This document shows positions 20,971-59,287 of a stretch of DNA of 64,000 nt, one piece after another. How positions within the stretch are numbered: the first letter of the stretch is position 1; the number at the start of each line of letters is the position of its first letter. Made by a program: the position numbers and the translations under genes. Location of the stretch: contig CAYXSN010000003.1 in the NCBI GenBank assembly GCA_964467655.1, forward strand, positions 34,714-98,713, given 5' to 3'. A model generated the notes under the pieces. The model saw only the letters and a list, made by a program, of their open reading frames with translations. It did no database searches and was not told the origin of the DNA. This stretch comes from an uncultured Candidatus Saccharimonadales bacterium. GTDB taxonomy: Bacteria > Patescibacteriota > Saccharimonadia > UBA4664.

Positions 20971-21279
20971 TCAAGCGGCGTCGCTTTGTTGCATATAATC
21001 CGCGACAATAACAATGATTTTTTGAACAGATTCGTTACAATTCTTAAAATCAATGCGGTCAAGAACGTCAGCAGTATATTTACGCATGACTTCACTGATG
21101 AGGGCATGGACAAATGACTGGGTAGCAGATGTTACACCCTCAAAATCCAAACACACATCCTTTCCACGGCTAATGCCCGGAAGGATTATCTGCTCACGTA
21201 TGTCGCGCGCAACGTCCTTATCTTCCGCGAATGCACCGACCTTTGGATATAAGCAAACAGTAATTACGTTATCCATCAT
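20971..21279 (-). CDS. STAS-like (DUF4325-type) small protein
   Basis: 102 aa; CLDFEGVTSATQSFVHALISE resembles the STAS-like DUF4325 core. Overlaps the upstream GHKL gene by 4 bp. Lies in a low-GC stretch. Confidence 0.45.
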   Translation of the reverse strand: MMDNVITVCLYPKVGAFAEDKDVARDIREQIILPGISRGKDVCLDFEGVTSATQSFVHALISEVMRKYTADVLDRIDFKNCNESVQKIIVIVADYMQQSDAA

Positions 21280-22241
21280 GAAAACCTCGGTCGCTTAAAC
21301 CTTTGCCGCCGTCGCTCCGCAATCGCTGTAGCATATACGTCGCCAATTAAAGTCAGCAGCTTATTAAGTTCTGTTGTTTCATCCAACGATAGATCAATAC
21401 CAACGACAGTTCCTTGCCATAATGGTAGATCATCGCGCTCAGAATGCTTCTCTCGATCTGGATCGCCATATAGGATTGTGCGCTTTGAGTTTTTGTCAGG
21501 CTGCAAAAGTTTATAAAATCCTTTTCCGCTATAAATCACGAAAAAGTCTCGATTGATTTTCGCCATAGATCGCACAAAGAACAACCCCGCACCAGCATTC
21601 GTCTCCGTGCCACCTTCTCGCGAGGTTGTACCAGTGATGCCGGGTGTCAATGCCAGCTTGATTGCGTCTAAATCCGATCGCGCCGAGTGTGATTCACGAA
21701 TTGTTTTCCAGATGCCTACACCCGTATCGGCGACGCCTATCCGAATTTTGTTAGTCTTTTTGAAATATTGAGCCGAAACTATTGCTCCGTGTTCAGACCG
21801 AGAATGTTCGAAAACGTTTCTTACTAACTCACTGACTATGTATCTGAGCGAGTCAGCTTGAAGTGGAGGTAAGTGGAGCATTGGAACCATATCCGTCATA
21901 AAGCGCTGCAAATCTTGAGAATTCTGGATTTCAGCCAGAGGGATAAAGCGGCCCGCAGGTTCGTGCCGCTCAATATCCATAGGCGATTCAACTTGCATCA
22001 GCCTGAAAAGTCCCATTGTATCGAGATAGTGGCCTGACCTAGCTGTAATCTCGTCAAAATGAATGTTCTCCGGTTTAAACGTCAAACCGAGAGCTCCAAT
22101 CATCGATAACACTACTGGATGGACAGCCATCCATCTATCGTTAGTTGTGATCTCTAACTGAGACACATCAGTGGGATCAAAGCCTTTGAGAAATGCGTCC
22201 AAATTACCCAAAAAAGCACTATTGGGAATATGTATCTTCAT
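21276..22241 (-). CDS. GHKL-superfamily (histidine-kinase-like) ATPase-domain protein
   Basis: N-box ELVRNVFEH, G1 box GVADTGVGI and G2 box GAGLFFV. No HisKA or DHp domain. Confidence 0.6.
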   Translation of the reverse strand: MKIHIPNSAFLGNLDAFLKGFDPTDVSQLEITTNDRWMAVHPVVLSMIGALGLTFKPENIHFDEITARSGHYLDTMGLFRLMQVESPMDIERHEPAGRFIPLAEIQNSQDLQRFMTDMVPMLHLPPLQADSLRYIVSELVRNVFEHSRSEHGAIVSAQYFKKTNKIRIGVADTGVGIWKTIRESHSARSDLDAIKLALTPGITGTTSREGGTETNAGAGLFFVRSMAKINRDFFVIYSGKGFYKLLQPDKNSKRTILYGDPDREKHSERDDLPLWQGTVVGIDLSLDETTELNKLLTLIGDVYATAIAERRRQRFKRPRFS

Positions 22242-22614: not shown

Positions 22615-25431
22615 ATGAGCCACCAGCTCGACAAAGCTTACGATCCCCAAAAATACGAATCCAAAATTTACACCCGCTGGGAAGCCTCCGGCGCCTTCAA
22701 ACCAGAGGGCAACGCTCATTTGCGGATGCCATTAGAGGAAAGGTCTGCCGAACAAGCTGGCGCAGGTTCAAAAGCGGCAACCAATTCGCAGTTGGGTGGC
22801 GTTCGTGAGCGTGAGGAGGTAATTGGCGCAGCAGCATCGCTGACACGCAGCAATACGCAAAAAGACCCGTTCACCATCATCATGCCGCCCCCAAATGCCA
22901 ACGGTAACCTCCACATGGGCCACGCCATGTTCGTGATTGAAGACCTCATGATCCGCTACCGCCGCATGCAAGGCCACCCCACCCTCTGGCTTCCCGGCGC
23001 CGACCACGCCGGCATCGAAACCCAGGTGGTGTACGAGCGCCAACTCGAGAAAGAAGGCAAGTCCCGCTTCGACCTCGGCCGCAACGAGTTTTACAAACAA
23101 GTCGACTCCTTCACCAAAGACAACATGGGCAACATGATCGCCCAGGTCAAATCGCTCGGATTCTCGGTAGATTGGTCCCGTCTCACCTACACCCTCGACG
23201 ACAAGATCGTCAGCACCGTTTACGACACCTTCAAAGAACTCCACAACGCCGGCTACATCTACCGCGGCAACCGCATCGTCAACTGGTGCCCGTTCTGTCG
23301 CAGTGCTTTTGCTGACATTGAGGTGAAATACCGCGAGCAAACCGATCCGCTCTACTACATCAAGTACGGCCCGTTTGTGCTCGCCACCGTCCGCCCCGAA
23401 ACCAAGTTTGGCGACACCGCCATTGCCGTCAATCCGCGTGACGAGCGCTACCAGCACCTCATTGGCACCACCATCGAGGCCGAAGACCTCAACGGCCCCA
23501 TCAAACTCACCGTCATCGGCGATGACCACATCGACCCGGCCTTTGGCACCGGCGCCATGAAAGTCACCCCCGCCCACGACCCCAACGACTGGGAAATCGG
23601 CCTACGTCACAACCTGCGCGTCGTGCAAACCATCGGCACCGACGGGCTCCTCACCGCCGTGGCCGGTAAATACGCCGGCATGCCGGTCGCCGAGGCCCGC
23701 CAGCAAGTGGCCCACGATCTCGAAGAGCGCGGCCTCATCGATCACATCGAGTACGATTACAAGCACTCCATCGGCTACCACGACCGCTGCGGCACCCTCA
23801 TTGAGCCCCTCACCGTCGAACAGTGGTGGCTCAAAGTCGACGAACTCAAAAAACCCGTCATCGAAGCTATCAAATCCGGCGAGGTCAAATTCGTCCCTGA
23901 GCGTTTCACCAAGATCGCTCTCGATTGGATGGACAACCTGCGCGACTGGAACATCTCCCGCCAAAACTGGTGGGGCATCAGGGTGCCGGTGTATTACAAC
24001 CGCTCCATCGATCAATCATTGCCCGAGTACATCATTGGCACCGAAGCTAATGCCAAAGCCCTTTATGGTCCAAACGGTTACGAAGCCGAAACTGACAACT
24101 TCGACACCTGGTTTAGCTCCGGCCAGTGGCCCTACACCACGCTTCAAGCCACCGGCGACTTCTGGGCGAAACAGCCAGAAACCGCTCAGGGGAATGCAGT
24201 GCCAGGAAGTGGCGAGGAGCAGACCGAGGCGTACAGCGACGTACGCCAAGGGAGCACCGCAGGCACTGACGCCGCAATGCGTCCCCTGAGCGGTTTCTAC
24301 CCCACATCAGTCATGGAAACCGGCCGCGACATCCTGTTCCTGTGGGTCACCCGCATGATGATGTTTGGCCTCTTCAAAACCGGTAAGGTGCCGTTCAAAA
24401 CTGTCTACCTCCACGGCCTCGTTACCGACGACAAAGGCAAGAAGATGAGCAAATCCAAGGGCAACGTGATCAACCCGCTCGACATGACCGCCAAATACGG
24501 CACCGACGCCTTGCGCCTGGCCCTCACCATCGGCATCACCGCCGGCAATGACGGCCCACTCTCTGAGCGCAAGATCGAGGGCTACCGCAACTTCTGCAAC
24601 AAACTCTGGAACGTTGCGCGCTTCATCCTCGGCCAGCTCCCCGACGACTACTCCCCCGCTAGCCCTCAGCTCCACTCCCCCGCCGATCATTGGATGGCCG
24701 CCCGCACCGACGCCGCCATCGCCAGTGTCACCCAAGCCATCGAAGAATACCGCTTCTCTGAAGCCGGCCAAACTATCTACTCGTTACTCTGGGACGATTT
24801 CGCCGATTGGTATCTCGAAGCCTCCAAGGTATCACCCAACCACGACCTGCTCGTCCAGACCCTTGAGACCATCCTTAAGCTCGCCCACCCCATCGCCCCA
24901 TTTGTCACCGAAGCCGTTTGGTCAGAAATGGCTTGGAACAGCCACGATCAGCTCATTATCACAGCCTGGCCAGTTGTAGACACTACAAGAACACAAAGCG
25001 AACAGTCGCTCATATTTGAGCATATCCGCGATGTCATACAAAAAGCCCGCACCATCATCGCCGAGGAACAATTGTCCAAACCCACGCTCATCACCACCGA
25101 CAAAACCCTGGCCGGCTCCACCGAACTTCTGCAGCGTCTCGGCCGCCTCGGTCAAGTTGAATGCCACGAGCAGGGGAGCGGCCTCTACCTCGGCGCCGCG
25201 GTTCCCGCTTGGATCAAAGCCGACACCACGCTAATCAGCACCCGTCAGCACCGGCTCGCATCCCAGCTCAAGGAAAAACAAGCTTACGCCAAAGGTTTAG
25301 AAACAAAATTAGACAACCCCGGCTACGTGGCCAACGCCCCGGCAGCCGTCGTCACCGAAACTCGCGAACGCTTAGTGGATGCCCAAACCCAGATGAAACG
25401 GTTATCCGAGCAGCTAGCTGCCTTGACATAA
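22615..25431 (+). CDS. valS: Valine--tRNA ligase
   Basis: HIGH-region PPPNANGNLHMGHA, KMSKSKGN motif and a C-terminal coiled-coil tail. 938 aa. Carries two low-complexity insertions relative to typical ValRS. Confidence 0.95.
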   Translation: MSHQLDKAYDPQKYESKIYTRWEASGAFKPEGNAHLRMPLEERSAEQAGAGSKAATNSQLGGVREREEVIGAAASLTRSNTQKDPFTIIMPPPNANGNLHMGHAMFVIEDLMIRYRRMQGHPTLWLPGADHAGIETQVVYERQLEKEGKSRFDLGRNEFYKQVDSFTKDNMGNMIAQVKSLGFSVDWSRLTYTLDDKIVSTVYDTFKELHNAGYIYRGNRIVNWCPFCRSAFADIEVKYREQTDPLYYIKYGPFVLATVRPETKFGDTAIAVNPRDERYQHLIGTTIEAEDLNGPIKLTVIGDDHIDPAFGTGAMKVTPAHDPNDWEIGLRHNLRVVQTIGTDGLLTAVAGKYAGMPVAEARQQVAHDLEERGLIDHIEYDYKHSIGYHDRCGTLIEPLTVEQWWLKVDELKKPVIEAIKSGEVKFVPERFTKIALDWMDNLRDWNISRQNWWGIRVPVYYNRSIDQSLPEYIIGTEANAKALYGPNGYEAETDNFDTWFSSGQWPYTTLQATGDFWAKQPETAQGNAVPGSGEEQTEAYSDVRQGSTAGTDAAMRPLSGFYPTSVMETGRDILFLWVTRMMMFGLFKTGKVPFKTVYLHGLVTDDKGKKMSKSKGNVINPLDMTAKYGTDALRLALTIGITAGNDGPLSERKIEGYRNFCNKLWNVARFILGQLPDDYSPASPQLHSPADHWMAARTDAAIASVTQAIEEYRFSEAGQTIYSLLWDDFADWYLEASKVSPNHDLLVQTLETILKLAHPIAPFVTEAVWSEMAWNSHDQLIITAWPVVDTTRTQSEQSLIFEHIRDVIQKARTIIAEEQLSKPTLITTDKTLAGSTELLQRLGRLGQVECHEQGSGLYLGAAVPAWIKADTTLISTRQHRLASQLKEKQAYAKGLETKLDNPGYVANAPAAVVTETRERLVDAQTQMKRLSEQLAALT

Positions 25432-25457: not shown

Positions 25458-25994
25458 ATGAGCATGACTCCTGAACAAGCCGAGCAAATAACTCAGCCAA
25501 ATCCTAGGCACGCTGGGGTAGCAGCAGAGCTTACTGAAATCATTGCCAACCGCGAAAAAGTGCAAGCTCTGCCGGGGGAGTCGCAGGCGGCGTATTTGTT
25601 GCGCATCACGGCACCCAAACGGCCAATGAAAGGCACGGTCAATCTTGCGCGCACCAGCATAACAAATCTCACCGAACACCCCGACCTGATTGCGGCTAAT
25701 TATACAACTCTTGTTAAACCATCAGCTGCCGACATCGAAAAAAATAATCGGGATGCCATTGCCAATCTCGCCGCCAACGATCTTACTAGTAAAAACGGTG
25801 CTGTTGGTGCTGAGGGTGGTAACCTGGAAACTTTTCAAAAAACCGAACGGGGCCGGAGTTTTATTGATACACAAAGCGAAAAAAGCCAAGGTTATTACAA
25901 CTTATTATTTGCCGGAACCGGCGACCCAGAAATCCAGGCAGTCGTTCGGGACCAATTAGTAAATAAAAAGATCGTCAACTTCGGGGGGGGGTGA
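25458..25994 (+). CDS. Hypothetical protein (178 aa) ending at a G9 homopolymer
   Basis: Frame terminates at TGA immediately after GGGGGGGGG (25983-25991). Removing one G joins it to the next ORF. Confidence 0.4.
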   Translation: MSMTPEQAEQITQPNPRHAGVAAELTEIIANREKVQALPGESQAAYLLRITAPKRPMKGTVNLARTSITNLTEHPDLIAANYTTLVKPSAADIEKNNRDAIANLAANDLTSKNGAVGAEGGNLETFQKTERGRSFIDTQSEKSQGYYNLLFAGTGDPEIQAVVRDQLVNKKIVNFGGG

Positions 25995-26016
25995 TGCAAC
26001 GCTAGAACACGATTTA

Positions 26017-26460
26017 GTGGAGTTTGGTGCCCAACCGGCCAGCGTAATAAATGTTGATCCCTTTCCATCTCCCGACCAACCAGACGCCCCGAAACCGCGC
26101 GACCGTATCATCCAAGCTGACAGCGCCGATCCAAACTTGTTGCAGCATAGTGAACTTGCTCCAGGTTCTGCCGATGAAGTGTTGGCGCTGTATTCGGTGC
26201 CATTTTATCTTACCAGCGGCGAACAGATATCGCAGATGTTGCATAACGGCGTGGATTTGTTAGCTCCTGGCGGAAACTTTCGCCTCTGGCCAGTTAACTT
26301 TAATGCCAATGGCGCCACGCCTGAAGCACTCCAAGAGCGCAAACAGTATTTACTTCATACGCTCAAAGTATTATCAGCCCAAGGTCTGCAAATATCCATT
26401 GTTTTCAATGGTAATCGCGGTGACACCTTAATTATCCATAAACCAAAGACCACCGGATAG
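26017..26460 (+). CDS. Hypothetical protein (147 aa); possible 3' half of a frameshifted gene
   Basis: GTG start. Its frame is open back to 25966, overlapping the end of the previous ORF. Confidence 0.4.
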   Translation: MEFGAQPASVINVDPFPSPDQPDAPKPRDRIIQADSADPNLLQHSELAPGSADEVLALYSVPFYLTSGEQISQMLHNGVDLLAPGGNFRLWPVNFNANGATPEALQERKQYLLHTLKVLSAQGLQISIVFNGNRGDTLIIHKPKTTG

Positions 26461-26710
26461 CGCCACATCCAAATGTCGGGACTAAACAGGGGATTATCCG
26501 CTCGTATTTTTTCGTATCATCGGCTTCAAAGTTTTTAGTATATATAATCCCAACCCAATAATCACCGGTACACTCAAGCGAAAATCATGACTGCGGCCGC
26601 AATCAGAAGATGTAGTCCTCAAACCTCATTGTCGGCCGGGAAGGGCCGACAATGAGAGGACACATACAAGCATCCTATAAGGAACAGAGCGGTGCTACAC
26701 TAAAATCACT

Positions 26711-27836: not shown

Positions 27837-29459
27837 CTAATCCCGCCGCCCAGCATCGTCAGTGCGTAACGGCTCGCCAGGTTCAAAAATTTTCAGGGTA
27901 TACAACGCCAGTCCGATGAACACCGGAACATACAAAAACAGATAACGCGACCGCCCTTCAAACAATAAAATAAACAGTATCAAACCGGTTAACATCAACC
28001 GTGGTACCAGGGTGGTAAAACCAAAGTTATTGCGGGCAGCATAGCGCAGCCTTGCCACCGGCAGTGCCACCAACATCAACACCGCCAGCCAACATACCTG
28101 AGCCACATTAGAATAGCCGCCATAACCCCACCCGCCGACGTAGAGTAATTGCCTCACAGCCCAACTCACGGCATCATTATGATAAAACGTCAGGTTCGTA
28201 TTACCCTCACCATAAGCATAAAAAGTGCCGTCAGACAAAATCCACAAAGCTTTTTTCAGCAAAAAATCGGCATAGCCCACTGGACCATATCCTGCCAACT
28301 GACGCTGAATCTCCGATAAGGCAAAAGCCGTCTTGGCCTGTTGGCCGGGTTGAGCTGATATATTGGCGACGGCTTCAGCCGAGTATACCCCGTAAGCCGG
28401 CACGCCATCATGCTCACGAGTCTTCATGCCAATGGCCGCATAATGCCACGCCGGCATCGCCACATCGTTCAGGTTACGGGCAGGATAGGGCAAAATGTCC
28501 AAGGTGTCCACCAGTTTGAGGTAACTAGCATAGGTGAAAAGACAAAACAGGCCAGTCATGAGCGCGCCACTAGCCACCATCCACCACCGGCGACGTTGTT
28601 GGGTGGCTGTCGCCGGACTCACCAGCAACCACACACCCAGTGCCACCACCGGCGCGATCACTGCCATGATCACCGTCGGCTTCATCAGTACGCCAACGAC
28701 AGCCACCACGCCCATAACCATCAACCATCCCAGGCGGGTGTTCGATGAGCGGGCAGCCGATGCCCGCAGAACCACGTACCACAGGCTAATCGGGAACAAC
28801 GCCGCCAAAGTATCAGTATAAACAGTCGCCGTCTGAGGACTGATCGCCAAAAGTAATAAGCTTAAGGGCCAGGTCATTCGGGCAATCCGCGCACCATAAA
28901 GACGCCTAGCCACAAGATACAGCATGATCTGGCTCAGCCAAAGTGCTACGGCATTCAAAACCGAAGCAGCGGTCACCAGATCGCTAACGCCAAGCAAGCG
29001 CACTAGCTTAAAATATCCCCCCAACATCACCAACAAAGCCACGTTGTTGGGGTACGTTTGAAAGTAGTCAACCAATGCCGGGTCAATAGAACCTTGTTGG
29101 GCATACCGAACCGCTTGATCCAAAACAATCTGGCTATCCCAACCCGAACCGGTAGCGGTAAGCGCCCAAGCGACAGTTAATTGAACCACCAGGAAGGCAG
29201 CAAATACCACCACAGTACACCAAGGCCGCCATACTCTCTGACTGCGATTGATCCGTACCGCCAACAAAGCCACCGTCATAGCTGCCCCAATGGCAATCGG
29301 TAGTTTCGGTCCAAACAAATGAAATTTATGCGCTGCCGGCACCAAAGCCACCAGTACAACCAAGATAGCGGCCACAACTAAGAAACTATAGTTATACCCG
29401 CGCAAGCACCGCCAAAGAATTTGCCGTGTAGTTGTAAGCTTGACCAGTGTAAAATTCAT
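27837..29459 (-). CDS. Large polytopic membrane protein, putative GT-C-type glycosyltransferase
   Basis: 540 aa with about 12 transmembrane helices in the N-terminal half and a large loop region. Paired head-to-head with the GT2 synthase. Confidence 0.45.
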   Translation of the reverse strand: MNFTLVKLTTTRQILWRCLRGYNYSFLVVAAILVVLVALVPAAHKFHLFGPKLPIAIGAAMTVALLAVRINRSQRVWRPWCTVVVFAAFLVVQLTVAWALTATGSGWDSQIVLDQAVRYAQQGSIDPALVDYFQTYPNNVALLVMLGGYFKLVRLLGVSDLVTAASVLNAVALWLSQIMLYLVARRLYGARIARMTWPLSLLLLAISPQTATVYTDTLAALFPISLWYVVLRASAARSSNTRLGWLMVMGVVAVVGVLMKPTVIMAVIAPVVALGVWLLVSPATATQQRRRWWMVASGALMTGLFCLFTYASYLKLVDTLDILPYPARNLNDVAMPAWHYAAIGMKTREHDGVPAYGVYSAEAVANISAQPGQQAKTAFALSEIQRQLAGYGPVGYADFLLKKALWILSDGTFYAYGEGNTNLTFYHNDAVSWAVRQLLYVGGWGYGGYSNVAQVCWLAVLMLVALPVARLRYAARNNFGFTTLVPRLMLTGLILFILLFEGRSRYLFLYVPVFIGLALYTLKIFEPGEPLRTDDAGRRD

Positions 29460-29510
29460 ATGAGGGAAGTAAATTGCTTACCTGCTTATTGTACGTGCTC
29501 CCTCCTATCT

Positions 29511-31073
29511 ATGACACCCCGACACCTCGCGCAACACCAGCTCATCACTATCACAGGTTTTTTTGCTGTCTTCATTTTCGGACTGTATTGGTGGGCACCA
29601 GGCAATGTACCGCATAATTTTGAGGGAATCGGACACGCCGTCGATTATCTACTGTTTGGCTTGACCTCATACGTTGTCTGGTTGCCTGTCATCATGAAAA
29701 TGCTCATGTGGCAAGTCTCACGCCATATACCCGAGACTCAGATGCAATCATCCCCCAAGCCGCCACCTGGTCGCCGGGTAGCGTTTGTTACTACCTACGT
29801 CCCCAGCTCGGAGCCCATCGAACTCCTCAAACGAACATTGCCGGCCATACTGGCCACTCATTATCCCCACGATACTTGGCTCCTCGATGAGGGTAACGAC
29901 CCCGCCGCCCGCAAGCTATGCGCCCACCTGGGAGTACGGCACTTCAGCCGAGCCAATATCGATGAGTACAATCAACCAGACGGGCCTTTCGCTCGCAAAA
30001 CCAAGGGCGGCAACCACAACGCCTGGTATGATCAATACGGCAAAAACTATGACTTTGTCGCCCAGATAGATACCGACTTTGTACCCAGCCGTTATTTTCT
30101 CGAAAGAACCTTGGGCTATTTTGAGGATCCTCAGGTCGGTTTCGTGGGTACACCCCAGATTTATGGCAATACCGCCCACTCTCTGGTAGCCCGCGGCGCA
30201 GCCGAGCAAACGTACAATTTCTATGGCCCCCTCATGCGCGGCCTGCACGGGTTTGGCAACACACTACTCATTGGGGCCAATCACGTCATCAGGGTAGAAG
30301 CCCTCAGAAGCGTTGGCTACTACAGCGCCCACATCACCGAAGACCTGCTAACCGGCATTAAGCTACACGCTCATGGTTGGCAAAGCCGCTATGTGCCCGA
30401 GGTACTCGCTATTGGTGAGGGGCCCTCCACCTGGAAAGCCTTTTTCGACCAACAGAAGCGCTGGGCATACGGCTGCATGCACATTTTATTCCACTACACT
30501 CCCAAATACCTGGGCCAGCTCAGTTGGCGGCAACGGTTTTATTACTTGTGGATCCAACAGCACTACTTCTCTGGATTAGCTATGCTCATCAGTCTCGTGG
30601 GGCTCACCTGCTATTTTGGTTTTGGTCTGCAAACAGCCAACCTGACGTTGATACCGTTCCTTTGCGCGTATTTGGGCCTCATGGTGGTGCTCGAGGCAAT
30701 TGACCTCTGGCTCCAAAACTTCAATATCAGGCCTTTTCTCGAGCGGGGCATCCTCTGGAGTGCTATCGTCATCAACATCGCCGTCTGGCCCACCTTCCTC
30801 ATGGCGTTCTTTCAGCTATTTAAGCGTCGCAAGCTCGGCTACAAAGTGACGCCCAAGGGCCAGAAAACCCAAAAAGACCCCTCAATCTGGCAACTGTTCA
30901 CGCCCCACTTCCTCATCGGGGGAGCCACCTTGGGCTTACTGGTTTCCTCGGTATTTACTGAACGTACGTCTCACATCATGGTTTTTTGGGCGACCCTCAC
31001 GGCCTTCAGCTTGTTGCTGGTCCCATTTGCACCCCAGCTTGCCGGTTGGTTGAAGCGCTTCAGCCCCCGTTAA
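29511..31073 (+). CDS. Family-2 processive beta-glycosyltransferase (cellulose/chitin-synthase-like)
   Basis: DXD motif LLDEGND and Q-x-x-RW motif QQKRWAYG, with transmembrane helices at both ends. Start chosen at MTPRHL (29511); the ORF track begins it at 29421. Confidence 0.75.
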   Translation: MTPRHLAQHQLITITGFFAVFIFGLYWWAPGNVPHNFEGIGHAVDYLLFGLTSYVVWLPVIMKMLMWQVSRHIPETQMQSSPKPPPGRRVAFVTTYVPSSEPIELLKRTLPAILATHYPHDTWLLDEGNDPAARKLCAHLGVRHFSRANIDEYNQPDGPFARKTKGGNHNAWYDQYGKNYDFVAQIDTDFVPSRYFLERTLGYFEDPQVGFVGTPQIYGNTAHSLVARGAAEQTYNFYGPLMRGLHGFGNTLLIGANHVIRVEALRSVGYYSAHITEDLLTGIKLHAHGWQSRYVPEVLAIGEGPSTWKAFFDQQKRWAYGCMHILFHYTPKYLGQLSWRQRFYYLWIQQHYFSGLAMLISLVGLTCYFGFGLQTANLTLIPFLCAYLGLMVVLEAIDLWLQNFNIRPFLERGILWSAIVINIAVWPTFLMAFFQLFKRRKLGYKVTPKGQKTQKDPSIWQLFTPHFLIGGATLGLLVSSVFTERTSHIMVFWATLTAFSLLLVPFAPQLAGWLKRFSPR

Positions 31074-35515: not shown

Positions 35516-36238
35516 ATGAATGATTTGAGATTAACACAAATATCCGCAGTCCTATTTGACCTGTATGGAACCCTGGTTGACATCAAGGTAGATGAGTTAT
35601 CGCTCAATTTTTGGACCTCAATAAGGAATACACTTGATGTCGCAATTGCTCCCGAAGATTTGCGCGACCAATATGAAAAAAAATGCACAGTAGCCATTGC
35701 AGCCAGCCAATCCGGCCAAGTAATTGAAGAGGTATTTGCTGATTGGTCTGCTGAACTCAGTCAGACATATCGCAAACCAATTGATACATTGACATTTATA
35801 CGCAAATTCCGCCAAGCCTCCCGAACCTCACTCCAATTACGAACGTATGCCAAACCCCTAATCCATATACTCCAGGCGTCAGGTACCAAAACGGCAATTG
35901 TATCGAATACAGAAGCAGCTTTCACTAAAGTCGATTTACTTGACATAAACATGCCTCCAGTCGATGCAATGGTCCTTTCGTCTGATGTTGGTTGCCGCAA
36001 GCCTCATCTCAAAATATTTTCGGCCGCACTCAACCAGCTCAACCTATCGCCAGATAAATGCGTATTTATTGGCGACAATTGGGAGGAGGATATTATGGGT
36101 GCCAGGCATGCAGGTACACATGCTATTTTTCTCTCAGACACCCCGAAGGTAATGAGCGATGTCATAACAATCTCTGCAAAGCCAAGTCTTAAATCCATGA
36201 TGGCAGCGTTAACAACACTAGACAATAACCTAAGCTAG
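35516..36238 (+). CDS. HAD-superfamily hydrolase
   Basis: Motif I FDLYGTLVD and motif IV VFIGDNWEEDIMGA. Start trimmed to 35516 because the longer ORF (35444) runs through the tRNA. Confidence 0.7.
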   Translation: MNDLRLTQISAVLFDLYGTLVDIKVDELSLNFWTSIRNTLDVAIAPEDLRDQYEKKCTVAIAASQSGQVIEEVFADWSAELSQTYRKPIDTLTFIRKFRQASRTSLQLRTYAKPLIHILQASGTKTAIVSNTEAAFTKVDLLDINMPPVDAMVLSSDVGCRKPHLKIFSAALNQLNLSPDKCVFIGDNWEEDIMGARHAGTHAIFLSDTPKVMSDVITISAKPSLKSMMAALTTLDNNLS

Positions 36239-46241: not shown

Positions 46242-49200
46242 ATGAAGTCGAGGTGGACTCTCATTGCGCTTATGGCGTGGGCCATTGTGGCACCAGCGCT
46301 CGTTGTTGTTATGCGTCCAGAAACCGCTCAAGCGGGAACACCAGCCTCCATCTTGCCGACCACATGTAACTGGACCAATACCACAACAATTACATGTAGT
46401 GGGTATCCTCAAGATGCCAGTCTAACTGTCACCTTTACACCCGACACGAGAAATCCATCAAACCCTCAACGCAGCTACAATGGCGGTACTGTCGGTACGC
46501 CAGGCGATGGAGGCACATACCAGTCTATTGAAAACGTCAGCGCCAACGGTACCAGTGGCCAATACACCGTCGATGGAACATCGCTCGGAGCCATCACGAT
46601 TGGTAATCAGGCAGCCTCAGGCCGGCCGGTCAACGCCGTCACGCCTGCCGATGCCAATGATGGTGCCGCCGATCCCGACACGGCCGTCAAATGTGACGCC
46701 GGCAAAGGCTTCACGTGGCTCATTTGCGGCACCATCGAGTGGGCCCTCAATGTGATCGATTGGATCAGAAACACCGTGCTCATCCCCATGCTCCAGCAAA
46801 AACCGTTCGACGAAGCTTCACCAGATATCGAAGCCCTCAAAAGCGTCTGGGCGGGCATGCGCAACATCGCCAGCATCGTTCTCATCCTGCTCTTCTTGCT
46901 TATTATCTTTGGGACGGCCATTGGCTACGACAACTACACCATCAAGAAAACCCTGCCCCGCCTAGTAGCCGGCGCCATCCTCATGCCATTGTCCTGGTAC
47001 ATCTGCGTCTTGCTGGTTGACCTCGGCAACATCCTAGGTGTCGGGCTCAAGGATTTAACGGCCCCCTTCATCCCTACACCGATCATTGATTTTAATTCAC
47101 CGATTTCCGAAGCTGTCTACAGCGTCGGTGGTGGTATTTTGCTCGGTGTCACTGGCTTTACCGCCTACACTGGCATGCTCTGGCCGGTATTGCTAGGCAT
47201 GGTCGTTGGCTTGGCCGGCGCCTTTCTCACCCTGGTACTGCGCAACATCTTGATTCTCGTCTTAACGGCCATTAGCCCTTTGGCAATGCTCGCCTACATA
47301 TTGCCCAATACCAAGAAATTCTATGACATGTGGCTGAGCAATTTCCTGCGCTTGATCCTCATGTTCCCTTTTATTATCTTGTTATTCCAAGCTGGCCGCC
47401 TATTTGCCGCCATCGCCGGAGCTGGCACCAATCCTATAAACACAATCTTTGCTCTTGTCGGACTGATGCTACCACTATTCTTAGTACCTTGGAGCTTTAA
47501 GACAGCTGGTCAAGCGTTGTCATTCGGTAGAGGCTACATCGATAAAGCTACTGGCATGGGCAAGCGGTACGGTTCAGACAAAATTGGCAACGCGATTAAG
47601 CGTCAGAGAGACAAAACCCGTGAAGCCAACAAAGCTCTTCGCCAGCATAACGCTATCCAGCGAGCAAAAGACATCGACAAAGAGGCCCCCACCAACCTCG
47701 GAGGTAAACTATCCAATAACGTCCGTCAACGAGTCGCCATGAAAAAAGCCGGGCATGGAGGCTTCCTTGGTGGCAAGGGTAATGTACTGCAGCAGCAAAA
47801 GTTTGAATCAGCGTACAGTGAAGCCGCCGCCACACAAGGCAAGATCGAGGCCGCCAAACTGGCTGGCGCTACCGGCACTAGCGAAACACACAAACAGCGC
47901 ATCGAAGCCGAAACCGCCATGGCACTCAAAGGCATTACCGACGGCCGGGCCAATCGTGCAGGATTCATGCAAGCTGTCGGCGAAGCCAATGGAGCCGAAC
48001 TTCCAGACAAAATGATCAGCTTCGCCCAGGCTAGTTACGCCGCCGGCACCGAATCCAGCCGTAAGAGCAATGCCAAGCTCCTCGGCACAGGAACCGGCGT
48101 TCAAGCCGCTGCCGCTGCGGGCGGTTTAGCTTCAACGGGGGCAATCGTCGCAGACGCCAGAGAAACCCAGATTGATAGCCTCAGTGACGAAAAAGGCCAG
48201 GTGGAAGGCCGCCTGATTGGTCAAAGGCACCTTGAGGACGTTGAACTCCAACGAACTGGCGTTAATCCGGCCACGGCAACGACGGCCCAAAGAGAAGCAG
48301 TCCAAAATAGGTTGCAACGCTATCGCCAAACCGATGCCCGCGTCAAAGCACGAGATACTGTACTTGAAGAAGGCGGGACCAAACGTCAGAGCCAAGCCGA
48401 TTTTACAACTCATGGATACCAAGATGTTGAGGAAGTTGAGGGTTCCGCTGCCCTCGAGCAACGTAGTAAGCTATCTACCACTCGCCAAGTCCGCCGCCAA
48501 CGCGTGGCCATCCAGGGTACAGCCGAGGGTGGCATGAGCGACGCAGATATTGAAATGGCGGCCAGTCGTGAAGCTCGCGAGAGCATTGGCGCCCAGGTCA
48601 TGAAGCAAAGGGTAGGCAACGAGACTGAGAGAGCCGACTTGGCTTCAGGTGACGCTACCCGTCGACCAACCCTCACCAACTCACTGATTGCCGCCCGAGG
48701 CCGGGCCGAAGAAAGCGCTTCCGCTGAGAGCGCCCAACGCACGGCCTACGTCAGATCTGCTCTTGGATACGAAAGCGAAAAACCATCTCGGCCATCGCTC
48801 GAAGAACGTATCCAAGATGCCTCTTTCAAAGCCACAACAGACCAGCGCACCAAAGACCTATCAGTCGGTGAGCGTCTCAGCGAAATCAGCAAGGCCGAAG
48901 ACCGGGTCCTTTTGAGCCAAAAAATCGATCCGGCTACCGCCTCAGCTGGTCAACGAGCCGATGCCAGGGCGAGCATTAGTGGCAAAATTGCCATCCAGGG
49001 CTCAGGGGAAGCCGGTTACAAAATGCGCATGGACATCGCCAAAGCCCGCGGCGAAGTCGAGGGCTTCGAAAAAGGCGTTAAGCAGCTCCAAATCGAAGAA
49101 ACTGCCAAGAACCTGCGCGAGAAAGCCATCGACGCCCATCTGGCTGCCAACACCGGCGCCACCAGAGCCGAAGCCGAAGAGGCTGTCGACAGCAATCCGG

Positions 49201-50633
49201 CCAACGATTTCAAGCGCGAGGCCGAACACAACGTTGAAGCTCTAGCCGCCGGCGCTCCGGCCCATCCCGATACTGTCACCTCGGACCAGGCCAGCCGCAT
49301 GTACCACGACGCTGGCGCCGAAAGCGCCTACACCTCAGCTGCCCAAGCCCAAGCCAATTCCATCGGCCAAGCCGTCGGTAAGGGACAGTCGGTCACAGCT
49401 GCGGTTGCTAACCGTGCGTCGACTAACCTCCTAGAGCTCGCCCGCGCCCACGGAGCAGCTCGTGGCATCACGAATGATGACCAAGCCATGGAGTCGTTCC
49501 TTGATGAACAAGTTCGCCTGACAGGCAGTGGCACGCCTGGTGTAGCCGCCGACCGCGAACAAGCCCGCCAGGCTTTACTCACGCAAATGGCCGCACAGGC
49601 TCAATCGGAAGTCATTTCTGCCGCTACGTTGGCAGGCATCGATAGCGGTGTCCGCAGTGAGGCAGCGGCCCAAGGACAACTTATCTCACAGGAAGAATCC
49701 TACAATTCGCCGACTAAATCCACAGCAGCTGATCAGCTAGAAATGGCTCGAAGAGACGCCAGTACAAACCTGGCCAGCAAAGAAGGAACCGACCAAGCCC
49801 GTTCACGCCAGCCCAAACTGGATTACTCGACAACAGTTGAGTCAACCAGGAAAGAAGCTCTTGACAAGTTCTTTGCTCAGAGAGTCCAAGAATCGGGCCG
49901 CAAATTCGTGATAGATGCCAACACCGGCAAACCAACTCCCGACCGAATCGATACTGCAGCGCCAACCAAAGATAACCAAGCCTCACTTCGTAAAATGGCA
50001 GAAGAAGCCTTCGACACGGGCGACTACGAGACCTTCGCAGCCTGCACCAATGCTTTGGGTCAAAACGGCAGTGGACGTGATATCGTCAGGGAGATTATTG
50101 AATCGAAGTTCGGATACGATGATAAGAACCGTATCAATCCTACCATCGCTGATCAGATCCGCAAAACAGCCAAAGCTAACGGCAACCCTGAATTCGACCC
50201 CGAATCATTCTTTAGTGCTGCAGTTTCGCGAATCAACAAAGATAAAGCACCATACTTATTTAAACCACGGGACGCCGCTTTTGGTAAACTACCTTCAAAT
50301 GAATTTGCGGCTCTCGATGACCGCGGCAAAATGCAGTACTTCCAGTGGGCAAGTGGCAAAGTTGGTACGACCGATGAAGCAAAGATCAGAGGTGAAGCCG
50401 TTTCCAATATGCACGAATCGGTCACCAACAAATCTCTCAAGCCCAATCCGGGCAACGCTGATTTTGATGCCATGTACCGCTACCTCTATGAGATTGATCC
50501 CACTACTAAGGCGGTTATAGGGCCAAATGCAGATAATATGAAGGCTTTTGAGGCACAATTTGGAGGGAATACTGTCAAATTCGGCCAAGCTATCGCCGAT
50601 ATTGAACGCGGCTTTAAATCACATAATGCCTAA
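46242..50633 (+). CDS. VirB6/TrbL/TraG-like polytopic membrane protein with a ~1000-aa Ala/Glu/Arg/Gln-rich C-terminal extension
   Basis: 1463 aa. N-terminal signal peptide, a Cys-containing ectodomain (~170 aa), 6-7 transmembrane helices (~aa 200-460), then a long charged low-complexity tail. Transcribed divergently from the pilin genes. Confidence 0.55.
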   Translation: MKSRWTLIALMAWAIVAPALVVVMRPETAQAGTPASILPTTCNWTNTTTITCSGYPQDASLTVTFTPDTRNPSNPQRSYNGGTVGTPGDGGTYQSIENVSANGTSGQYTVDGTSLGAITIGNQAASGRPVNAVTPADANDGAADPDTAVKCDAGKGFTWLICGTIEWALNVIDWIRNTVLIPMLQQKPFDEASPDIEALKSVWAGMRNIASIVLILLFLLIIFGTAIGYDNYTIKKTLPRLVAGAILMPLSWYICVLLVDLGNILGVGLKDLTAPFIPTPIIDFNSPISEAVYSVGGGILLGVTGFTAYTGMLWPVLLGMVVGLAGAFLTLVLRNILILVLTAISPLAMLAYILPNTKKFYDMWLSNFLRLILMFPFIILLFQAGRLFAAIAGAGTNPINTIFALVGLMLPLFLVPWSFKTAGQALSFGRGYIDKATGMGKRYGSDKIGNAIKRQRDKTREANKALRQHNAIQRAKDIDKEAPTNLGGKLSNNVRQRVAMKKAGHGGFLGGKGNVLQQQKFESAYSEAAATQGKIEAAKLAGATGTSETHKQRIEAETAMALKGITDGRANRAGFMQAVGEANGAELPDKMISFAQASYAAGTESSRKSNAKLLGTGTGVQAAAAAGGLASTGAIVADARETQIDSLSDEKGQVEGRLIGQRHLEDVELQRTGVNPATATTAQREAVQNRLQRYRQTDARVKARDTVLEEGGTKRQSQADFTTHGYQDVEEVEGSAALEQRSKLSTTRQVRRQRVAIQGTAEGGMSDADIEMAASREARESIGAQVMKQRVGNETERADLASGDATRRPTLTNSLIAARGRAEESASAESAQRTAYVRSALGYESEKPSRPSLEERIQDASFKATTDQRTKDLSVGERLSEISKAEDRVLLSQKIDPATASAGQRADARASISGKIAIQGSGEAGYKMRMDIAKARGEVEGFEKGVKQLQIEETAKNLREKAIDAHLAANTGATRAEAEEAVDSNPANDFKREAEHNVEALAAGAPAHPDTVTSDQASRMYHDAGAESAYTSAAQAQANSIGQAVGKGQSVTAAVANRASTNLLELARAHGAARGITNDDQAMESFLDEQVRLTGSGTPGVAADREQARQALLTQMAAQAQSEVISAATLAGIDSGVRSEAAAQGQLISQEESYNSPTKSTAADQLEMARRDASTNLASKEGTDQARSRQPKLDYSTTVESTRKEALDKFFAQRVQESGRKFVIDANTGKPTPDRIDTAAPTKDNQASLRKMAEEAFDTGDYETFAACTNALGQNGSGRDIVREIIESKFGYDDKNRINPTIADQIRKTAKANGNPEFDPESFFSAAVSRINKDKAPYLFKPRDAAFGKLPSNEFAALDDRGKMQYFQWASGKVGTTDEAKIRGEAVSNMHESVTNKSLKPNPGNADFDAMYRYLYEIDPTTKAVIGPNADNMKAFEAQFGGNTVKFGQAIADIERGFKSHNA

Positions 50634-50735
50634 TCAAAGGCTAGTCTAACCTTCCCTCAAGCCCCAATTTAGCGTAAGCTTTATATATCAACTGTGAGGG
50701 ATGATAGGGGATAGGCACGCCCCAGCACACGTGAT

Positions 50736-51560
50736 ATGGGACAATACACCGTACCGCAAAACGTTGAAGCCGAAGACCATATCTTAGGCCCGCTAACGTT
50801 CAGGCAGTTCATCTACATGATGATCGGCCTGGGCTGGGTGATTATTACCTTCGCCTTGTTCCGCAAACTGATTGCGGCCTTCATTGTCATTGGTGTGCCA
50901 CCGACCATTTTGTTCATGCTGCTAGCTTTCTTCAGACGCGACGGCCAGGACTTCGAGCATTTACTGGTAGCTGTGGTCGGCTTTTTTGCCGCTCCCCGCC
51001 AGCGCTTGTGGATCAAAGAAGAAACCATCGAAACCTTCCACATCACGCCCACAGCCAAACAGGCCGAAATCACCCAACGTAACCCACAGCTAGTCATCAG
51101 TGAACTCGAGAAGTTGGCCGTGCTCATTGACTCCCGGGGCTGGAACCTGCCGACTGCCCCCGAGGTCACGCCTCAGCTCATCATGCCCAGCACACCGGCC
51201 TCGGCCCGCATCGTCCAGCCAGACAATACTCCCTCAAACATCACCGCTCCCCACACCGACATGCTCGACCTCCAAAACAGCCCGCTGGCCCAAAACCTCT
51301 CGGTGCTGCTCCAACAGTCAGCCGACCATGTCAAGCAGTCGGCGGTCAGCGGCATGACACCGGGTAGTGAACTACCCGCACCGACTCATTTTGCCACGCC
51401 CGTCAAAAGCATAAGCGGCGTGACAGGCCTCGCCCAAGACGATATACTACGGTTAGCTACCCAGAGTGAGGGAATGAGCATTGCCTCTGTTGCGGCCCAA
51501 GCCACGCGCTTGAGCCCAGACAGTGGCGCAAATGTGGAGCCAGTTGCCAATGCCAGCTAA
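50736..51560 (+). CDS. Small membrane protein (two N-terminal transmembrane helices; VirB3/PrgI-like position) with a Pro/Ser-rich tail
   Basis: FIYMMIGLGWVIITFALF and FIVIGVPPTILFMLLAFF helices lie directly upstream of the VirB4 ORFs. The VirB3 assignment rests on position only. Confidence 0.4.
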   Translation: MGQYTVPQNVEAEDHILGPLTFRQFIYMMIGLGWVIITFALFRKLIAAFIVIGVPPTILFMLLAFFRRDGQDFEHLLVAVVGFFAAPRQRLWIKEETIETFHITPTAKQAEITQRNPQLVISELEKLAVLIDSRGWNLPTAPEVTPQLIMPSTPASARIVQPDNTPSNITAPHTDMLDLQNSPLAQNLSVLLQQSADHVKQSAVSGMTPGSELPAPTHFATPVKSISGVTGLAQDDILRLATQSEGMSIASVAAQATRLSPDSGANVEPVANAS

Positions 51561-52284
51561 TTCAGCCAGCAAAACCGGGAAAAGCACCCAACAAACGCTT
51601 TTGATTTCCGAAATCAAAGATGGCGTGGTAGTTTTGCGTGACGGCTCCATTAGAGGCGTCATCCTCGGGAGTGCCATCAACTTTGAGCTCATGAGCAGTC
51701 AGGAGCAACAAGGCATCGAGATGGCCTACCAGAGCTTCCTCAACTCACTTCATTTCCCAATCCAAATTGTCATTCGTTCAGAACGCATCGACCTGTCAGC
51801 CTACATCGACAGGATGCAAGCCAAGCGCACCGAGCAATCAAACGAGTTGTTGGGTGCCCTCATGGACGATTACATCGCCAATGTTAAATCGCTGGTCGAT
51901 GAGGTCAACATTATGGACAAGCAGATCTACATTGTGGTGCCATATTTCCCCGATGTAGCCACAGGCAAATCACCGGCGCTCGTCAAAAACATCAAAAATG
52001 CATATAGCACCCCACCAGACATTACGATCACCGAAGAAGAATTCAAGGCCTACAAACAAGAATTGTCAGAACGGATGGCCTTGGTCTCGAGCGGCCTCGG
52101 CCAGATCGGCATCAGGGCGCTGGCACTTGGCACCCAAGAACTAGTCGATCTCTACTATACCTGGTACAACCCCGACATCGCCCACAACCAGAAGCTGATT
52201 GAAGCCGAGCAGCTCACGGCTCCCGTGGTCCTCAAAGGCGACGGCCGAGCACCCCACACCACCATTGAGGGAGGTCCTTTCTGA
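51523..52284 (+). CDS. VirB4/TrbE-family N-terminal domain, encoded as a separate ORF
   Basis: LLISEIKDGVVVLRDGSIRGVILGSAINFELMS...GIEMAYQSFLNSLHFPIQIVIRS matches the VirB4 N-terminal region. Its stop overlaps the next start (TGATG). Confidence 0.55.
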   Translation: MAQMWSQLPMPANSASKTGKSTQQTLLISEIKDGVVVLRDGSIRGVILGSAINFELMSSQEQQGIEMAYQSFLNSLHFPIQIVIRSERIDLSAYIDRMQAKRTEQSNELLGALMDDYIANVKSLVDEVNIMDKQIYIVVPYFPDVATGKSPALVKNIKNAYSTPPDITITEEEFKAYKQELSERMALVSSGLGQIGIRALALGTQELVDLYYTWYNPDIAHNQKLIEAEQLTAPVVLKGDGRAPHTTIEGGPF

Positions 52285-54173
52285 TGGGACTTTTTGGCCC
52301 ACCCAAACCCAAAGTTGATCCTGGGGCTCTGGCTGCCTACCAGCAAGCTATGGAGCAACGCGAGGCCGAGCTCATTTACCGCCAAGGCATCATCACCATG
52401 CGCGACCTCATTGCGCCTTCGTCATTGGAGATCGACGCCAATTACCTGAGGATTGGCAAACGCTATTGCAAGACGCTCTACGTGTATGGCTACCCCCGCC
52501 AGGTGTTCACCGGTTGGCTGTCGCCAATTATCAACCTCGATGAAATCATCGACATCTCACTTTACATCTACCCCGTGGAATCGCGCGTCGTTCTCGACAA
52601 CTTACGCAAAAAAGTCACCCAGATGGAAGCTTCGTATGCCATCAACGAAGAGAAAGGCAAAGTGCGCGACCCAGGCCTTGAAGCCGCGCTCCAGGACGCC
52701 GAAGAGCTCAGGGACAAGCTCCAAGTTGGCGAAGAGCGGTTCTTCAGGTTTGGTATGTATCTCACGATGTACGCCGATTCCATTGACGCCATGACCGATC
52801 TCAACCGCAAAATCGAGGGCATTTTCGGCCAGTCGCTGGTGTACACCAAAGCCGCCACCATGCAGATGGAGCAAGGCTTCAACTCCACGAGTCCCTTGGC
52901 CAACGACCAGCTCCAGATCTCGCGCAACATGGACACCGGAGCCCTGTCCACCAGCTTCCCGTTCACTTCAGCTGAACTATCTCGCAACGAAGGCATCCTT
53001 TACGGCCTCAACCGCCACAACAACGGCCTGGTGCTTTTCGACAGGTTCTCGCTCGAAAACGCCAACATGGTGGTATTCGCTAAATCCGGTGCCGGTAAAT
53101 CGTTTTCCATCAAACTTGAAGCCTTGCGCTCTCTCATGATGGGCATCGAAATTATCGTAATTGACCCCGAAAACGAGTACAAAACCCTCTGCGAAGCCGT
53201 TGGCGGCACCTATCTGCGCCTCAGTTTGGCCAGTCAAACTCGCATCAACCCCTTCGACCTGCCGCGAGTATTCGACCAAGATGAAGCCGACAACGCCCTC
53301 CAAGCCAACATTATTACACTGCACGGCCTGTTGCGCCTCATGATCGGTGGCGCCACAGTCTCAAACTCCACCGGCGCCACCAGCGTAACCTCCCTTACTC
53401 CCAGCGAAGACGCCGACCTCGATCTGGCAATCATCAATACCTACGCCCGCGCCGGTATCACCCGCGACCCCCTCACCCACAATGCCACCCCGCCCACCAT
53501 GAACGATCTCTACAATACTCTGGCCTCCATGACGGGCAACGGCCCCGACCTGGCCATGAGGCTACGCAAATTCACCACCGGCACGTTCTCGGGTATTTTT
53601 TCAGAGCAATCAAACGTCGAAATCAACAACCCCTTCCTGGTATTCAACATTCGCGACCTCGAAGACGAACTACGGCCCATCGGCATGTACATCGTGCTCA
53701 ACTACATCTGGAACAAGGTCAAATCAGATCGTCGCAAACGCATCCTAGTAGTCGACGAAGCCTGGCAACTTATGAAGTACGACGACTCAGCCGCCTTCAT
53801 GTTTAGCCTGGCCAAACGGGCCCGCAAATACTTCCTCGGCCTCACCACCATCTCCCAAGACGTCGAGGACTTCTTAAGCAACAAAATGGGCCGGGCCGTG
53901 GTCGCCAACTCATCACTCCAGCTCTTACTCAAGCAAGCCCCTTCAGCCGTCGACATTATTGGCGAAACCTTCAAGCTCACGAACGAAGAAAAAGCCAGGC
54001 TCACCGAATTCCCGGTGGGAGAAGGCTTATTCTTCGCTGGACTCAATCACGTCATCATCAGAGTCCTGGCGTCCGAAACCGAAGCCAGCCTCATTAGCAC
54101 CAATCCAGCCGACAAAGGTCAGGCGCCATCAGCCCCCACTGAAACATCAGCGCCAGCGGAACAAGGAGCATAA
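52284..54173 (+). CDS. virB4: Type IV secretion/conjugation ATPase VirB4 (TrbE/TraE/PrgJ-like), central and C-terminal ATPase region
   Basis: Walker A FAKSGAGKSFSIK and Walker B ILVVDEAWQLM. The VirB4 middle region (LIAPSSLEIDANYLRIGKRYCKTLYVYGYPRQVFTGWL) is also present. 629 aa. Confidence 0.88.
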   Translation: MGLFGPPKPKVDPGALAAYQQAMEQREAELIYRQGIITMRDLIAPSSLEIDANYLRIGKRYCKTLYVYGYPRQVFTGWLSPIINLDEIIDISLYIYPVESRVVLDNLRKKVTQMEASYAINEEKGKVRDPGLEAALQDAEELRDKLQVGEERFFRFGMYLTMYADSIDAMTDLNRKIEGIFGQSLVYTKAATMQMEQGFNSTSPLANDQLQISRNMDTGALSTSFPFTSAELSRNEGILYGLNRHNNGLVLFDRFSLENANMVVFAKSGAGKSFSIKLEALRSLMMGIEIIVIDPENEYKTLCEAVGGTYLRLSLASQTRINPFDLPRVFDQDEADNALQANIITLHGLLRLMIGGATVSNSTGATSVTSLTPSEDADLDLAIINTYARAGITRDPLTHNATPPTMNDLYNTLASMTGNGPDLAMRLRKFTTGTFSGIFSEQSNVEINNPFLVFNIRDLEDELRPIGMYIVLNYIWNKVKSDRRKRILVVDEAWQLMKYDDSAAFMFSLAKRARKYFLGLTTISQDVEDFLSNKMGRAVVANSSLQLLLKQAPSAVDIIGETFKLTNEEKARLTEFPVGEGLFFAGLNHVIIRVLASETEASLISTNPADKGQAPSAPTETSAPAEQGA

Positions 54174-54179
54174 GAGGAA

Positions 54180-59260: not shown

Positions 59261-59287
59261 AATAATAACTCAATAGGAAGTACCCCA

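Follow-up and report, generated by a model that had tools for sequence, protein, structure and literature searches.

In a 64,000-nucleotide stretch of contig CAYXSN010000003.1 from an uncultured Candidatus Saccharimonadales bacterium (assembly GCA_964467655.1; the whole stretch is here termed the window), a run of nine guanines (G9) interrupts a single gene whose restored product is predicted to have the fold of S-adenosylmethionine (SAM)-dependent methyltransferases. The interruption recurs in every one of the 24 public assemblies or samples in which the locus was found, with 9 G on most haplotypes, 7 G on one and the in-frame length, 8 G, on none. On balance, we think that these are probably null alleles generated by replication slippage and stably inherited since, that is, that the gene is a young pseudogene which could still revert.

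One gene interrupted at a poly-G tract

The gene is annotated as two open reading frames (ORFs) on the forward strand, with the following parts:

25458-26460, forward strand: whole gene, methyltransferase-like, split by the frameshift; 333 amino acids (aa) if the tract were 8 G
25458-25994, forward strand: ORF1, 178 aa, ending ...VNFGGG*; predicted N-terminal helical domain, beta1 (KIVNF) and GGG of motif I
25983-25991, forward strand: G9 homopolymer, coding Gly176-Gly177-Gly178; in frame at a length of 8 G, out of frame at 9 G or 7 G
25992-25994, forward strand: TGA stop that the 9 G allele acquires through its frameshift
25963-26460, forward strand: +1 frame, which would carry beta2 to beta7, the remainder of the methyltransferase domain
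26017-26460, forward strand: ORF2, 147 aa, with a GTG start that is the first possible start in its frame

Coordinates and sequence agree with an earlier reading of this DNA from its letters alone (the sequence-only reading), which had placed the homopolymer at the junction of the two ORFs and had proposed that deletion of one G fuses them. The codons AAC TTC are followed by the nine guanines and these, directly, by the TGA. Since ORF2 lies in the +1 frame of ORF1 ((26017-25458) mod 3 = 1), and not in the -1 frame as had been stated, loss of a single base joins the two into a fusion that reads ...NFGGGDATLEHDLVEFGAQPAS... and, across the tract, ...KKIVNFGGGDATLEHDLVEFGAQPAS.... This fusion measures 333 aa rather than some 335, and the frame of ORF2 is open back to 25963, where it is bounded by a TAA at 25960-25962, rather than to 25966. 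Adding two G also joins ORF1 and ORF2, and in the 7 G allele the frame of ORF1 continues to ...GGVMQR*. An alternative ATG for ORF1, at 25464, is the start chosen by other gene callers.

ORF1 and ORF2 belong to one gene, of which each is a half. When the fused protein was used in a word-indexed search, a single homolog came back, P0001 (344 aa, 48% identity, 93% coverage, E 1e-92), to which the fusion aligns in BLASTP without a gap over the junction (KKIVNFGGGDATLEHDL versus KRIVNLGGGQANLAEEL; in the longer form of the stretch, KKIVNFGGGDATLEHDLVEFGAQPASVINVD versus KRIVNLGGGQANLAEELTDFGAPPQSVLNVE) and in the contig of which the three glycines are coded GGT GGC GGA, with no homopolymer. The wider family emerged only when 1.84 billion representatives were searched exhaustively with HMMER, which yielded 151 relatives at E values up to 0.001; in nearly all of them a single chain matches the profile over the junction. 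Split entries among these relatives are confined to this species' own halves (P0002 and P0003), and no fused, in-frame representative of the species is among them; a word-indexed search with the family profile gave four proteins, two of which were again the window's own split halves. Two apparent split members of the family were set aside: P0052, from a low-coverage contig, reads through the motif in that contig (...VVLGGGLGRL..., coded GGA GGA GGT), and P0106 is a 506-bp fragment. At two further family loci the motif is coded GGT GGC GGT and GGC GGC GGT; in all, four orthologous loci code the glycine motif without a homopolymer and in an unshifted frame. The sequence-only reading had suggested looking for orthologs with a single fused ORF, which is what the closest ortholog and nearly all family members present, and had named orthologs encoding two separate proteins as the finding that would speak against it; none turned up in this family of about 150 representatives. 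The two 'hypothetical proteins' of the current annotation should hence be merged into one frameshifted gene belonging to an unnamed family, of about 150 representatives, with a predicted methyltransferase fold.

Scans of the window protein against Pfam, NCBIfam and the defence-system models of PADLOC gave no meaningful match and passed no curated family threshold, and a sequence-only profile search against the PDB returned nothing significant. The earlier verdict of a gene with no recognisable function can be refined by structure prediction and profile alignment. The AlphaFold2 (AF2) model of the fusion, built on a 74-sequence family alignment and superseding a poor run on a 2-sequence alignment (predicted local distance difference test score, pLDDT, of 47), is a single globule (pLDDT 89.8, predicted template modelling score, pTM, 0.88) in which residues 1-165 are helical and a seven-stranded alpha/beta domain spans residues 171-327, beta1 comprising residues 171-175 (KIVNF). 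The best 50 Foldseek matches of this model in the PDB are all class I SAM-dependent methyltransferases (probability 0.99-1.00, E 2.5e-6 to 5.5e-5), with METTL6, UbiG, CouO, Bud23, MnmM, NNMT and Coq5 as neighbours. A distant relative, P0126, passes the Pfam Methyltransf_11 model (49.3 bits versus a cut-off of 21.2), which starts at its residue 45 and the positions 1-8 of which are its LDLGSGNA. The family profile aligns to P0126 in hhalign with 97.5% probability (E 7.8e-12), and VNFGGGDA comes to stand opposite LDLGSGNA, that is, at the G-x-G of SAM-binding motif I. Weak matches to Methyltransf_12, _23, _11 and _25 are seen in 5 to 10 of the 74 family members per model. Across the 74 aligned members no sequence departs from G177, G176 and G178 are kept in at least 90%, and the motifs NxDP, ADEvlAlYSVPfYL and LLApGGnfRlwP are all intact in the frame of ORF2.

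As modelled, the restored protein is a divergent representative of the class I SAM-methyltransferase fold, preceded by a helical N-terminal domain, and the G9 tract codes for the loop of SAM-binding motif I, directly after beta1. It shares with the class I enzymes (Pfam Methyltransf_11/12/23/25) the seven-stranded Rossmann-like sheet of the model, the glycine-rich G-x-G loop after beta1, an acidic residue after beta2 and an 'LLxpGGxxri' motif at beta5. Unlike them, it lies below every Pfam and NCBIfam threshold and carries a 165-residue helical N-terminal domain with conserved motifs of its own, and the members of its family have no common conserved gene neighbourhood. Because the nine guanines encode the near-invariant Gly-Gly-Gly of motif I, neither half should be able to work as an enzyme: on the model, ORF1 alone would have no methyltransferase core and ORF2 alone would be without beta1 and motif I.

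The same considerations bear on the notion that the two ORFs are genuine proteins, translated separately from a naturally split gene and acting independently or in a complex. Gene callers do annotate two ORFs and both are open in all haplotypes, but the split would fall inside the SAM-binding loop, directly after beta1, the C-terminus of ORF1 depends on the allele (GGG* versus GGVMQR*), and no split ortholog is found in the family, the apparent one, P0052, being continuous in its own contig. Moreover, the GTG is the only start available to ORF2, and inspection of the sequence upstream of it revealed no Shine-Dalgarno (SD) sequence and no promoter-like box, so that ORF2 appears to lack a credible translation signal. 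Two separate proteins are, in our judgement, scarcely believable.

Tract length across public assemblies

The locus was recovered by exact-protein look-ups in public assemblies (Logan, ENA and JGI) and the tract was measured in each. The 26 loci obtained represent 24 distinct assemblies or samples, all of them consensus assemblies, and comprise Logan assemblies of SRA runs, ENA assemblies of MEGAHIT and SPAdes style and assemblies from JGI. In the literature, no paper was found to cite these runs or samples by accession. The lengths observed were:

9 G: 17 assemblies (SRR6747782, SRR30654310, SRR8208348/9, five SRR142340xx runs, SRR14932692, SRR20074301, SRR21798915, ERZ27248694/701/705/706 and ERZ724526)
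7 G: 7 assemblies (JGI 3300045330/32/33, SRR23702517/19/22 and DRR685535)
8 G: none of the 24 assemblies

Tract length tracks haplotype perfectly, with haplotypes A, A2, C1 and C2 all at 9 G and haplotype B always at 7 G, and there is no variation in length within a haplotype (17/17 at 9 G, 7/7 at 7 G). The haplotypes bearing the two lengths are about 1% apart: haplotype B shares 98.9% identity with the window over 8.5 kb and has five substitutions in the gene. Among the 9 G haplotypes, C2 differs from the window by about 1% over 4 kb. In the 90%-identity cluster of ORF1 the only endings are ...GGG* and ...GGVMQR*. Twelve in-frame fused proteins were looked up in a collection of 15 billion proteins (haplotypes A, A2, C2 and B at 8 G, and A also at 5 G and 11 G, with both start codons), and none is present there. 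A DNA-pattern search for an in-frame allele, using the flanks and 6-12 variable bases, gave no match in genome or metagenome contig collections, and a search of genome contigs for related loci found no relative.

Several other differences among the haplotypes deserve mention. All five in-gene substitutions of haplotype B relative to the window (25508, 25728, 25750, 25800 and 26305) are G>A on the coding strand, which looks like mutational bias. Position 26305, in a loop of the predicted methyltransferase domain, shows two independent mutations, one of them G>A in haplotype B (Ala283Thr) and the other G>T in haplotype C2 (Ala283Ser). The divergence between haplotypes A and B is a mosaic, reaching 2.3% in the valyl-tRNA synthetase gene (ValS) and 1.2% in that of the major facilitator superfamily (MFS) protein, with 0.1-0.3% in the HATPase, PMT_2 and GT2 genes, a pattern that suggests recombination among strains. 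Finally, the spacer between the methyltransferase-like gene and the MFS gene contains a (TA)4 repeat at 26531-26540, in 'agtatatataatc', that is (TA)5 in haplotype B and thus forms a second simple-repeat length polymorphism between that haplotype and the window's own.

The survey bears directly on an error of sequencing or assembly over a true 8 G genome, which the sequence-only reading had put forward as one of its two explanations. Homopolymers are the classic source of indel errors and 8 G restores a perfect ORF, but we reject this explanation as very improbable: 24 independent assemblies, from varied assemblers and sources, concur in the frameshift, the two lengths are strictly linked to haplotype, and a systematic error would not yield one extra base in one strain and one missing base in another. 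In addition, an A8 run at 35676-35683, the only other homopolymer of at least 8 in the window, is in frame (GAA AAA AAA) within an intact 264-aa ORF and serves as an internal control against homopolymer errors, and the genes of the window are otherwise unbroken. An artefact can therefore be excluded for practical purposes.

Probable slippage and gene loss, and the alternatives

Chance does not account for the tract, which is the sole run of G or C of at least 7 in the 64-kb window, the next longest being 6. G/C runs as a whole are strongly depleted there against both independent and identically distributed (i.i.d.) and first-order expectations: C6 runs number 3, with 21-27 expected, and C runs of at least 7 are lacking, with about 9-12 expected. 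GGG makes up only 10.6% of the glycine codons in window genes, and none of the six other Gly-Gly-Gly motifs in the window contains it (0/6). A comparative study reported that Saccharibacteria, as a group, show no evidence of either MutS or MutL (PMC8406219). The tract is thus a mutational hot spot, being the lone G/C run above 6, built of rare GGG codons, in a lineage reported to be without MutS and MutL.

The course of events that we postulate begins with the glycine loop, which in this species would have come to be coded GGG GGG GGT, a G8 run that we infer to be the ancestral state. Replication slippage on this run would then have shifted the frame, giving G9 in most of the lineages and G7 in a single one, and both alleles would have been stably inherited; they are the only alleles seen in nature so far. 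Each would truncate the protein inside the cofactor-binding loop, leaving the enzyme off and its function presumably lost, and a single-base slip could revert the locus, with no evidence in the assemblies of reversion at a useful rate. That the tract length differs between strains, on either side of 8 G, supports a slipped-strand origin, and in this respect the second explanation of the sequence-only reading, a slipped-strand phase-variable switch, holds up; for a working switch the assemblies give no evidence, there being no in-frame allele and the length being fixed within each haplotype. Given the perfect linkage to haplotype in 24 assemblies from several projects, the consensus length has changed only once or twice during about 1% of flanking divergence, and the locus is at most a slow on/off switch.

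Slippage pseudogenes at homopolymers are a general phenomenon in reduced genomes, and the present gene resembles them in having a single frameshift, located at its longest homopolymer, in being otherwise intact, in having the disruption fixed in the assemblies, against intact orthologs, and in a ratio of nonsynonymous to synonymous substitution rates (dN/dS) near 1. In favour of relaxed constraint, 2 synonymous and 6 nonsynonymous within-species changes (on 233 synonymous and 766 nonsynonymous sites) give a dN/dS of about 0.9, set against 61:22 synonymous to nonsynonymous changes in the neighbouring genes (Fisher p = 0.0096). Several points nevertheless weigh against a pseudogene. The dN/dS rests on only 8 changes, and the contrast with the neighbours overstates any relaxation because the gene is fast-evolving in the long term (48% identity to the closest ortholog, versus 73-79% for the neighbours). 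Apart from the tract the gene is undamaged: there is no second stop or indel in any haplotype, and 18/18 invariant or near-invariant family residues are kept. The two off lengths, moreover, bracket 8 G, and passing from one to the other needs either an 8 G (on) step or a rarer two-base slip; such a pair of lengths flanking the in-frame one is unlike the usual slippage pseudogene. So is the siting of a rare-codon tract at the best-conserved motif, which would not be expected from neutral evolution. A G8 run made of rare codons, in a genome from which such runs are otherwise purged, is what one classically expects of a selected contingency tract. To this it must be added that consensus assemblies cannot show minority 8 G subpopulations.

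Several of these points also speak for a true contingency locus, that is, a selected and reversible slipped-strand switch with the methyltransferase on at 8 G and off at 7 G or 9 G, the sampled populations being dominated by the off state. Poly-G contingency genes are known in Campylobacter, Neisseria and Haemophilus, and homopolymer switches in Mycobacterium tuberculosis. Campylobacter and Mycobacterium lack MutS and MutL and have G/C runs of 7-10 that phase-vary, and methyltransferases are frequently phase-variable, all of which counts in favour of a switch. At the present locus, a slippage-prone repeat lies inside the restored ORF, and a change of one base in its length toggles between a full-length protein colinear with the orthologs (8 G) and truncated ones that end at Gly178 or shortly beyond it (9 G and 7 G). 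Strains differ in the length of the tract, to either side of 8 G, all five haplotypes keep both halves and every conserved residue intact, the GGG codons of the tract are shared neither by the six other Gly-Gly-Gly motifs of the window nor by the four orthologous loci, G/C runs are otherwise purged from the window, and the phylum is reported to be without MutS and MutL (PMC8406219). The 7C tract of glpK in M. tuberculosis and the poly-G genes of Campylobacter jejuni, including capsule and flagellar-glycan methyltransferases, exemplify homopolymer contingency genes in bacteria without mismatch repair (10.1101/717272, PMC10334774, PMC8355987). The locus resembles these in its coding-region G/C run of 7-9, in which one base either way toggles the frame, in a host lineage reported to lack MutS and MutL, and in a strain-variable tract within a target of predicted methyltransferase fold; it differs in that its host is an episymbiont of the Candidate Phyla Radiation (CPR). 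Of a contingency gene one would expect both the on and the off state in nature; here 0/24 assemblies are in frame and the 15-billion-protein collection holds no fused protein, so that the locus fails one defining test of phase variation. Among the 17 and the 7 samples, which come from several projects, the length is constant within each haplotype; none of the assembled contigs is broken at the tract, and the dN/dS is that given above. We therefore regard a working switch as possible but rather unlikely.

A further alternative is that the full-length enzyme is still made by recoding, either because ribosomes shift frame (by +1 at GGG_UGA for the 9 G allele, by -1 on the G run for the 7 G allele) or because RNA polymerase slips on the G run. 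In the 9 G allele a slippery GGG stands directly 5' of UGA and is preceded by a G-rich, SD-like run (GGGGGG), an outline resembling the +1 site of prfB, the gene for release factor 2 (RF2), where the shift likewise yields a full-length product; either correction would give exactly ...NFGGGDATL..., with the junction peptide IVNFGGGDATLEHDLVEFGAQPASVINVDPFPSPDQPDAPKPR, and the gene is otherwise intact. Against this, the 9 G and 7 G alleles need opposite shifts, and the shift site is not conserved, the orthologs being unshifted and devoid of a tract. The spacing is zero, versus 3 nt in prfB, there is no stimulatory RNA structure downstream (z = -0.04), and, unlike in prfB, no autoregulatory logic is apparent. 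Nor does the dN/dS suggest a protein under selection, and efficient slippage during transcription is mostly known from long A/T runs, which counts against the polymerase variant. Taken together, these observations make recoding improbable.

Returning to slippage-made null alleles, the event type, a frameshift by homopolymer slippage, is known, the host group is new for it, and the gene family is unnamed and uncharacterised; a literature search found no paper linking Saccharibacteria with phase variation. The alleles suggest that a G8-type run is unstable enough to produce two null alleles within about 1% divergence in a TM7 lineage reported to be without mismatch repair. If no minority in-frame cells exist, the locus would be a clean, dated example of slippage-driven gene loss in a streamlined genome. 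If they do, it would offer an entry point to stochastic gene switching in CPR bacteria. A working switch would give the CPR its first described case of phase variation by a simple repeat; the methyltransferase could then plausibly modify a surface or host-interaction molecule, which would suggest that ultra-small epibionts share a bet-hedging strategy with host-adapted pathogens.

Gene neighbourhood and other features of the window

The gene lies between ValS and the MFS gene, an order common to the contig of P0001, where ValS is 73%, the MFS protein 79% and the methyltransferase-like protein 48% identical. This synteny is not kept beyond the closest ortholog, two more distant members sitting among unrelated genes, and an assignment of function from gene neighbourhood was dropped since the context is conserved only there. 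Upstream of the gene, ValS (22615-25431) contains in its 3' end a perfect TTGACA at 25423-25428. Further upstream, in all haplotypes, a gene on the reverse strand (21276-22241) encodes a 321-aa protein with a weak histidine-kinase-like ATPase (HATPase) domain and no recognisable sensor or DHp domain. On the other side, the PMT_2-type and GT2 (cellulose-synthase-like) glycosyltransferase genes beside the MFS gene (27837-31073) are missing from L001, the otherwise syntenic contig of the closest relative, an insertion or deletion difference between the species.

Many genes of the window have no SD sequence and present instead a GCTAnAnT / TAnnnT-like box 7-12 nt 5' of the ATG (e.g., gctacactaaaatcactATG), among them those starting at 17093, 19932, 26711, 46242 and, on the reverse strand, 40150; such a box without an SD sequence suggests messenger RNAs with very short leaders or none. 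The region 46242-60775 is a type IV secretion-like block that comprises proteins of 1463 aa and 1265 aa with no Pfam match, a VirB4/TraG-like P-loop ATPase (52284-54173) and a fusion of a phage-tail lysozyme with a VanY peptidase (57965-59260). Lastly, the genome belongs to TM7/Saccharibacteria (Patescibacteria), as the GroEL encoded at 326-1984 is 81-85% identical to proteins of 'Candidatus Saccharimonadia bacterium'.

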